Source: Escherichia coli
GTDB lineage: Bacteria > Pseudomonadota > Gammaproteobacteria > Enterobacterales > Enterobacteriaceae
Direction: 5' to 3' (one strand)
Length of the DNA: 64,000 bases
NCBI RefSeq assembly: GCF_030013595.1
Contig: NZ_CP122768.1
A program made the translations under genes and the position numbers. Below are positions 57,798 to 57,826 of the stretch, one piece after another. The notes under the pieces are model-generated. The model had not been told where the DNA came from. It searched no databases and was given only the letters and a program-made list of their open reading frames with translations. Every line of letters begins with the position of its first letter. The first letter of the stretch is position 1.

Positions 57798-57826
57798 CCT
57801 GATTCAATGTGTAACATTGAATCAGG
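57798..57826. repeat. 29-bp perfect palindrome (13-bp arms, 3-bp spacer) between sulfatase and zinc-ribbon genes
   Basis: CCTGATTCAATGT-GTA-ACATTGAATCAGG; on the minus strand it is followed by TTCTTTTCTTTG, so terminator or operator. Confidence 0.75.

Follow-up and report, generated by a model that had tools for sequence, protein, structure and literature searches.

The perfect 29-bp palindrome between the sulfatase and zinc-ribbon genes is very probably the stem-loop of a Rho-independent (intrinsic) terminator in the 3′UTR of the sulfatase gene, and this terminator would most likely act as a leaky attenuator within an operon. As such, the palindrome is an ordinary terminator, previously unannotated and belonging to a very familiar class. 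Support for the terminator comes from the U-rich tract on the coding strand, the covariation of the stem across genera, and the strand-specific G·U pairing. The main value of the analysis is that it settles that the palindrome is not an operator. The features of the window (the whole 64-kb stretch of Escherichia coli DNA that was analysed) on which the argument depends are as follows.

56501–57745, minus strand: Zn-protein gene, 414 aa, with an IS1/IS1595-type N-terminal zinc ribbon; Shine-Dalgarno AGGGAG at 57751–57756
57746–57786, minus strand: junction attributed to the loss of the maturase (anSME) gene, from the T-tract to the conserved TATTCGCAGGGAGTGAATATG ribosome-binding region; diverges strongly between E. 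coli variants
57787–57797, minus strand: U-rich tract UUCUUUUCUUU, directly 3′ of the stem (terminator scan)
57798–57826, minus strand: palindrome, or terminator stem-loop, 29 bp with 13-bp arms and a UAC loop (sequence, terminator scan, fold, covariation)
57828–57838, minus strand: small hairpin GGGC-CAU-GCCC, 1 nt from the terminator stem (RNAalifold)
57839–57850, minus strand: conserved single-stranded box, GUAUGCCUUUCA in the window and GUAUGCCACUUA in most genera
57851–57874, minus strand: A-rich spacer from the sulfatase stop to the box, poorly conserved (majority fraction 0.65)
57875–59368, minus strand: sulfatase gene (PF00884), whose 3′UTR carries the module
59388–60149, minus strand: ompK/tsx-like porin gene of the island
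4.4 kb between hokC/sokC and nhaA, all genes on the minus strand: accessory island of E. coli

On the plus strand, positions 57798–57826 read CCTGATTCAATGT-GTA-ACATTGAATCAGG, with perfect 13-nt arms around a 3-nt centre. The flanking sulfatase and zinc-ribbon genes both lie on the minus strand, on which the element reads GCCUGAUUCAAUGU-UAC-ACAUUGAAUCAGGU, then UCUUUUCUUU, and has the shape of an intrinsic terminator. G57827 and U57797 add a fourteenth pair (G·U) to the stem, and with this closing pair the element is G-CCUGAUUCAAUGU-UAC-ACAUUGAAUCAGG-U, again followed by UCUUUUCUUU. The palindrome begins exactly 48 nt past the sulfatase stop codon (TAA, 57875–57877), so that both the palindrome and its distance from the sulfatase gene are as the preliminary description had given them. 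The same description placed it near two candidate starts of the next gene, and these lie 16 nt (ATG 57781) and 52 nt (ATG 57745) past the palindrome.

Chance would hardly produce a perfect inverted repeat with 13-nt arms. Over 40 runs of a first-order Markov simulation, the longest arm had a mean of 8.2 nt and a maximum of 11 nt, and the analytic expectation for arms of at least 13 nt is 0.006 per window. The palindrome ranks third in length among the perfect inverted repeats of the 64-kb window. Other long ones lie at 8127–8166, 52063–52102, 284–312, and 40745–40772 (arms of 17, 16, 11, and 11 nt, respectively); the last two have A and T runs on their sides, in the manner of bidirectional terminators.

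The hit of the terminator scan, confined to the coding strand, has 14 pairs, a loop of 3 nt, and a T-rich tail. The plus strand reads CGGGCAUGG and has no T-run. Moreover, the T-tract is kept in a TTCTTTTATTT-like form in all of the 27 loci (27/27), with a mean of approximately 8 T in 11 nt. The hairpin alone has a folding energy of −18.9 kcal/mol, and the fold of the region beats 200 of 200 shuffles (z = −3.5). The element thereby combines a stable RNA stem-loop with a U-rich tract that starts directly past the stem, within the 0–2 nt expected of such terminators, on the coding strand only; it lies past a stop codon in the same orientation, and its structure, rather than its sequence, is under selection. 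The stem has a moderate G+C content (5 of the 14 pairs are G-C), and the U-tract is interrupted by a C. For such a long, moderately G+C-rich stem with a C-interrupted U-tract, the terminator efficiency is not predictable.

The relatives of the locus came from 20 species genomes obtained via the Zn-protein alignment, 10 more contigs encoding Zn-protein homologues, and 13 metagenome contigs obtained via a DNA pattern. In Escherichia, Citrobacter, Salmonella, Klebsiella, Kluyvera, Phytobacter, Kosakonia, and other Enterobacteriaceae, a hairpin lies about 50 nt past the stop codon of the ortholog of this sulfatase, whichever gene comes next. The arms are as follows.

Escherichia: CCUGAUUCAAUGU/ACAUUGAAUCAGG
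Citrobacter: CCUGGCUCAGUAU/AUGCUGAGCCGGG
Kosakonia and Phytobacter: CCCGAUCUUUC/GAGGGAUCGGG

In an alignment of 20 diverse sequences (A4), 94.4% of the cells are paired, as compared to 28–42% with slid partners, and compensatory double changes occur in 10 of the 14 pairs of the long stem (44 cells). The covariation score is 0.430 versus 0.230, and none of the 500 shuffles reached it; the result was similar in an alignment of 18 sequences (A3), although such shuffle statistics are inflated by the relatedness of the sequences, and it is the slid controls and the multiple pair types that argue against an artefact. In A3, 96.4% of the cells are paired (25–44% when slid), with compensatory changes in 8 pairs. 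The hairpin is conserved with compensatory changes in at least eight genera and in varied chromosomal contexts.

The pairing is also strand-specific. The 18-sequence set contains 33 G·U cells on the sulfatase-sense strand, and the pairing amounts to 96.2% on this strand, as compared to 82.1% on the antisense strand or as a DNA palindrome. In the 86% variant of the E. coli island, the U-A pair at the top of the stem is replaced by C-G, and an additional A-to-G change gives a G·U pair; the latter change, carried by 1,054 genomes, breaks the perfect DNA palindrome. The loop length varies from 3 to 6 nt among the relatives, while the T-tract is always present. The covariation of the stem, the wobbles on the sense strand, and the variable loop fit an RNA hairpin, not a DNA operator.

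To which gene does the hairpin belong? In most genera, the gene after the hairpin encodes a Radical_SAM + SPASM protein, assigned from its domains as the anaerobic sulfatase-maturating enzyme (anSME), and the Zn-protein gene follows 15–25 nt past the maturase gene, with no palindrome between them. Since the maturase gene is next in most genera, and the Zn-protein gene comes after it without a palindrome, the comparison assigns the hairpin to the 3′ end of the sulfatase gene, not to the zinc-ribbon gene. The analysis demonstrates the structure and strand of the element, as well as its conservation and the link to the sulfatase gene.

In Escherichia, the maturase gene is absent. We compared the junction in the window (57746–57797) with those in the loci L007 (1913–1963), L008, and L012. 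In E. whittamii, the sequence after the T-tract is ATG|CTGAAC, in which the maturase start is joined to the surroundings of its stop, as the latter read in Citrobacter. Between the two variants of the E. coli island, the 25 nt remaining at the deletion have diverged strongly. Judging from these junctions, Escherichia deleted the maturase ORF almost exactly, and this deletion placed the hairpin beside the Zn-protein gene, at most 52 nt from its start. The locus L026 has no called maturase, yet a remnant of the maturase N-terminus (..KKSCQVMIKPTG..) lies right past the terminator (4345–4420). From its sequence, this remnant is an independent decay of the same gene, in which the box AUG has been lost as well.

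The sulfatase itself also differs in Escherichia. Its formylglycine motif (59120–59134, sulfatase residues 79–83) is S-S-P-S-R in the window, in the E. coli 86% variant, and in E. albertii, as opposed to C-S-P-S-R in 19 of the 19 other loci checked (L002 and L006 versus L009–L033). In Escherichia, the loss of the adjacent maturase is therefore accompanied by a Cys-to-Ser change at the catalytic residue. The Escherichia sulfatase may be unmatured, matured by another anSME, or repurposed, and, given the two changes together, one may ask whether it retains sulfatase activity in the E. coli genomes (23%) with the gene. In some relatives, an arylsulfotransferase gene (PF05935) lies between the Zn-protein gene and nhaA, or nearby (L029, 5879–7594; L031, 5872–7587; L030, 1–1436), and the neighbourhood looks like a wider cluster for sulfur-ester metabolism.

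How would the terminator act in its ancestral setting? The ancestral order would be ompK, sulfatase, hairpin, anSME maturase, and Zn protein, transcribed along the minus strand. As RNA polymerase passes the 14-bp hairpin and the U-tract, the hairpin would fold in the exit channel, and a fraction of the transcripts would be released. The hairpin would also protect the 3′ end of the sulfatase mRNA. In other genera, the maturase start codon lies 0–26 nt past the T-tract. In the window, the promoter scan from the sulfatase stop to the Zn-gene start detected no promoter-like site, with overall counts equal to the shuffle expectation. Since the maturase starts so close to the T-tract and no promoter-like site lies past the hairpin, the downstream genes would be expressed by read-through, and with no space for a promoter before the next gene, the hairpin probably acts as a leaky intra-operon attenuator, not a full stop. 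Such attenuation would yield much sulfatase message and little maturase and Zn-protein message, and thus a high sulfatase-to-maturase ratio. We infer the actual termination, the partial read-through, and this stoichiometry rationale from the sequence features described above. The preliminary description had proposed a terminator “separating the two genes”; the terminator part holds, while a complete separation is less likely than leaky attenuation, for the two reasons just given. The element would be a neat example of a terminator placed inside an operon between the genes for an enzyme and its maturase, and this placement suggests control of their stoichiometry. The literature on STM0035/STM0036 and on sulfatase–maturase terminators yielded nothing on this element.

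Terminators at this place are found beyond the genera that share the hairpin. Franconibacter and E. pulveris have an unrelated hairpin with a T-tract at the same position (among L022 2690–2760, L024 2690–2760, L023 2770–2820, and L021 2764–2770). C. amalonaticus has a hairpin without a T-tract between the sulfatase and maturase genes, and Buttiauxella has no spacer at all. By these comparisons, a terminator between sulfatase and maturase recurs in distant relatives, yet is not universal.

What is the role of the sequence just upstream of the terminator? There, the box and the small hairpin form the stretch TATGCCACTTAGGGC-NNT-GCCC. The box includes the sequence GCCACUUA and an AUG, and its majority fraction (0.88) is at the level of first codon positions (0.90), as compared to 0.64 for third positions. 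The small hairpin, with the general form GGGC-NNU-GCCC, is nearly invariant: 97.5% of its cells are paired, its NN-U loop is free, and it shows no compensatory change, so that its support comes from conservation only. Neither part is required by a plain terminator, which suggests a further function of the module. Among the 16 loci with the maturase, the box has 0.25 edits per locus, versus 2.18 in the 11 loci without it, 10 of which have an altered box, with these raw locus counts ignoring phylogeny and covering approximately 5–6 independent losses. The terminator energy and the T-tail are the same with or without the maturase (27 loci). The decay of the box upon maturase loss points to a cis role in maturase expression.

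This leads to a tentative extension of the attenuator reading, which we regard as a possibility well short of an even chance. The box and the small hairpin (57828–57850) would be a cis-acting sensor or binding site that sets the passage of transcription or translation into the maturase gene. Candidate agents are an RNA-binding protein, a processing event, and a ribosome on the short ORF starting at the box AUG, and the palindrome would still be a terminator, but a controlled one. In its fullest form, which we likewise advance with reserve, the terminator may be the output stage of an undescribed cis-regulatory RNA module of approximately 70 nt (box GUAUGCCACUUA, GGGC-NNU-GCCC hairpin, and terminator), present in at least eight enterobacterial genera and controlling the read-through or the coupled translation into the radical-SAM maturase; the box would be recognised by a factor, and its decay in the lineages without the maturase, Escherichia among them, would be the footprint of that function. 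The conservation of the box, its decay in maturase-less loci next to an equally kept terminator, the lack of room for a promoter of the maturase’s own, and the module’s lack of an Rfam match (the one family matched in 55000–62000 with an E of 1 or less is sok) all favour such control. On the other hand, no alternative antiterminator pairing is evident, the small hairpin neither overlaps the terminator nor covaries, and the association with the maturase comes from the phylogeny-blind counts and the few independent losses mentioned above.

The ribosome-based version of such control was considered separately. In the window, the mini-ORF MPFRAMPA-stop (57828–57851, minus strand) runs from the box AUG to a UGA inside the 5′ arm of the terminator. 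The ORF from the box AUG always runs into the 5′ arm or farther (18 of 18 sequences), and in 11 of the 18 it consists of 8 codons ending at the UGA of CC-UGA-UUC, which speaks for regulation. Its length, however, ranges from 8 to 42 codons, or it is fused in frame; it has no consistent Shine-Dalgarno sequence, the AUG is lost in L026, and the frame is broken in P. massiliensis. The mini-ORF is not preserved consistently, and the idea of a leader-peptide (ribosome-mediated) attenuator therefore appears weak. By-eye comparisons of the box with sigma-54, sigma-E, sigma-28, and sigma-32 sites and with boxA/nut gave no convincing match, and its pairing with the maturase or Zn-protein ribosome-binding regions, also judged by eye, reached only 4–5 bp; these candidates were rejected. 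The box, together with the small hairpin, is the only part of the element that is possibly new, and it represents a candidate cis-regulatory RNA motif with a testable comparative signature.

The same conserved stretch could be read in trans. The module, at about 70–80 nt, would then be cut from the sulfatase mRNA by RNase E and act with Hfq or ProQ, with the box as the seed. It would consist of the A-rich region, the box, the small hairpin, and the terminator with its U-tail, and the palindrome would serve as both the sRNA terminator and the chaperone-binding hairpin. This architecture is like that of the type II 3′UTR sRNAs, with a conserved unpaired stretch, a hairpin, and a Rho-independent terminator with a U-tail (PMC12704781); here, too, a conserved unpaired region lies upstream of a 3′ Rho-independent terminator with a U-tail. 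Nevertheless, we consider such an sRNA rather unlikely. The decay of the box is specific to the loss of the adjacent maturase, which argues for a cis rather than a trans role, and the literature search found no published sRNA for this locus. A 3′UTR-derived sRNA is possible, and would fit the maturase-linked decay less well than a cis role does.

The preliminary description had also offered an operator for a dimeric regulator, possibly the zinc-ribbon protein itself, which would bind the duplex palindrome to control the downstream gene. The true start of this gene is almost certainly 57745, as judged from the PGAP annotation, the conserved AGGGAG, and the alignment of 17 homologues, which begin with M-F (F or V at residue 2 in 16 of 17). 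The Pfam, NCBIfam, and PDB sequence searches with the Zn protein returned zinc-ribbon and IS1-like N-terminal matches only (IS1 InsA, IS1595-type). Its AF2 model is poor (pLDDT 56), and the best Foldseek matches are weak and all DDE transposases or integrases. The predicted relationships indicate that the protein may be transposase-derived and nucleic-acid binding. Its C-terminal approximately 300 aa have no family match. The family is restricted to the Enterobacteriaceae, nearly always beside this sulfatase/maturase cluster, and the protein evolves faster than the sulfatase (85% versus 97% amino-acid identity between E. coli and E. whittamii).

The possible DNA binding by the IS1 InsA-like zinc ribbon, the perfect symmetry of the palindrome in the window, and the outer 9 bp (CCTGATTCA), which are fairly conserved within several genera, would favour an operator. 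Against this, the inner half-site (the inner 4–6 bp of each arm) varies between genera while the pairing is kept, and in Kosakonia and Phytobacter the difference extends over the entire arms. In many genomes, among them those with the commonest E. coli variant, G·U wobbles have removed the symmetry of the DNA, leaving 82% of the cells Watson-Crick paired, and the half-site spacing is not fixed, as the 3–6-nt loop shows. Moreover, no promoter-like site overlaps the palindrome, and in most genera the Zn-protein gene is not preceded by the palindrome; in L021–L024 and L030, the hairpin is unrelated or missing. The element is instead tied to the sulfatase 3′ end, and the Zn-protein gene mostly follows a palindrome-free maturase junction; the comparison lends no support to the zinc-ribbon protein as the regulator. 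Neither a conserved half-site, nor a fixed spacing and symmetry, nor co-occurrence with a regulator gene or a promoter was found.

Further copies of the half-site and of the palindrome were looked for as well. In the 64-kb window, the half-site matched the palindrome itself and one chance-level site with two mismatches. The island is absent from K-12 and O157:H7 and is carried by 1,271–1,275 of 5,426 complete E. coli genomes (23%), as a type with 95–100% identity in 221 genomes and the 86% type in 1,054. No second copy of the palindrome was detected in the 5,426 genomes (46-nt query, E up to 10): it occupies a single place per genome in 1,275 genomes, and the 221 seeming second places arise from the match of the palindrome to its own opposite strand. 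A covariance model of the module gave one full sense-strand match per locus (56–86 bits) and nothing outside the sulfatase 3′ end in 312 kb + 268 kb of related loci, and all of the 13 full modules in the metagenome contigs are at the same position. The comparative data have thus largely refuted the operator already, and we regard it as very improbable.

Next to the island, the Rfam sok antitoxin RNA match (118.8 bits) overlaps the mokC/hokC leader (60619–60771, plus strand), and an IS186-type transposase ORF (60952–62232, minus strand) adjoins this leader, as in K-12. A functionless REP-/MITE-like repeat remnant, recombination scar, or chance palindrome might be expected in an accessory island by IS186 and hok/sok and beside a deletion junction, but it is scarcely credible here, as the palindrome is single-copy rather than a dispersed repeat (REP, ERIC, or MITE), far exceeds the chance expectation given above, and has kept compensatory changes across its genera and their differing chromosomal contexts.

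The terminator reading can finally be set beside known systems. Like the intrinsic terminators of the Enterobacteriaceae, the element has a nascent-RNA stem-loop and then a U-tract, past a stop codon and on the coding strand, with compensatory substitutions. In contrast to them, its stem is long (13–14 bp) and relatively A+U-rich, its U-tract is interrupted by a C, and ahead of it lie a further, small hairpin and the strongly conserved box, neither of them needed by ordinary terminators. The dimeric-repressor operators share with it the perfect twofold symmetry of the window copy; its symmetry, half-sites, and spacing, however, are not conserved, and it has no association with a promoter or a candidate regulator. 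The type II 3′UTR-derived sRNAs UhpU, CpxQ, and SdhX (PMC12704781) likewise come from a conserved 3′UTR, in which an unpaired, conserved stretch precedes a final Rho-independent terminator. They differ from the present element, for which processing, chaperone binding, and targets would be predictions; moreover, the conservation of its unpaired box tracks the adjacent maturase, which suggests a cis role. The closest parallel for the proposed function is dksA/gluQ-rs of Shigella flexneri, in which an attenuating terminator between the genes was shown by reporter fusions and terminator mutants (PMC3542578). In that system, a promoterless, co-transcribed downstream gene is lowered in expression by the terminator ahead of it, and the maturase gene, with its start 0–26 nt past the T-tract, is placed in the same way; the attenuation at the sulfatase 3′ end differs in being deduced from sequence and comparative data.
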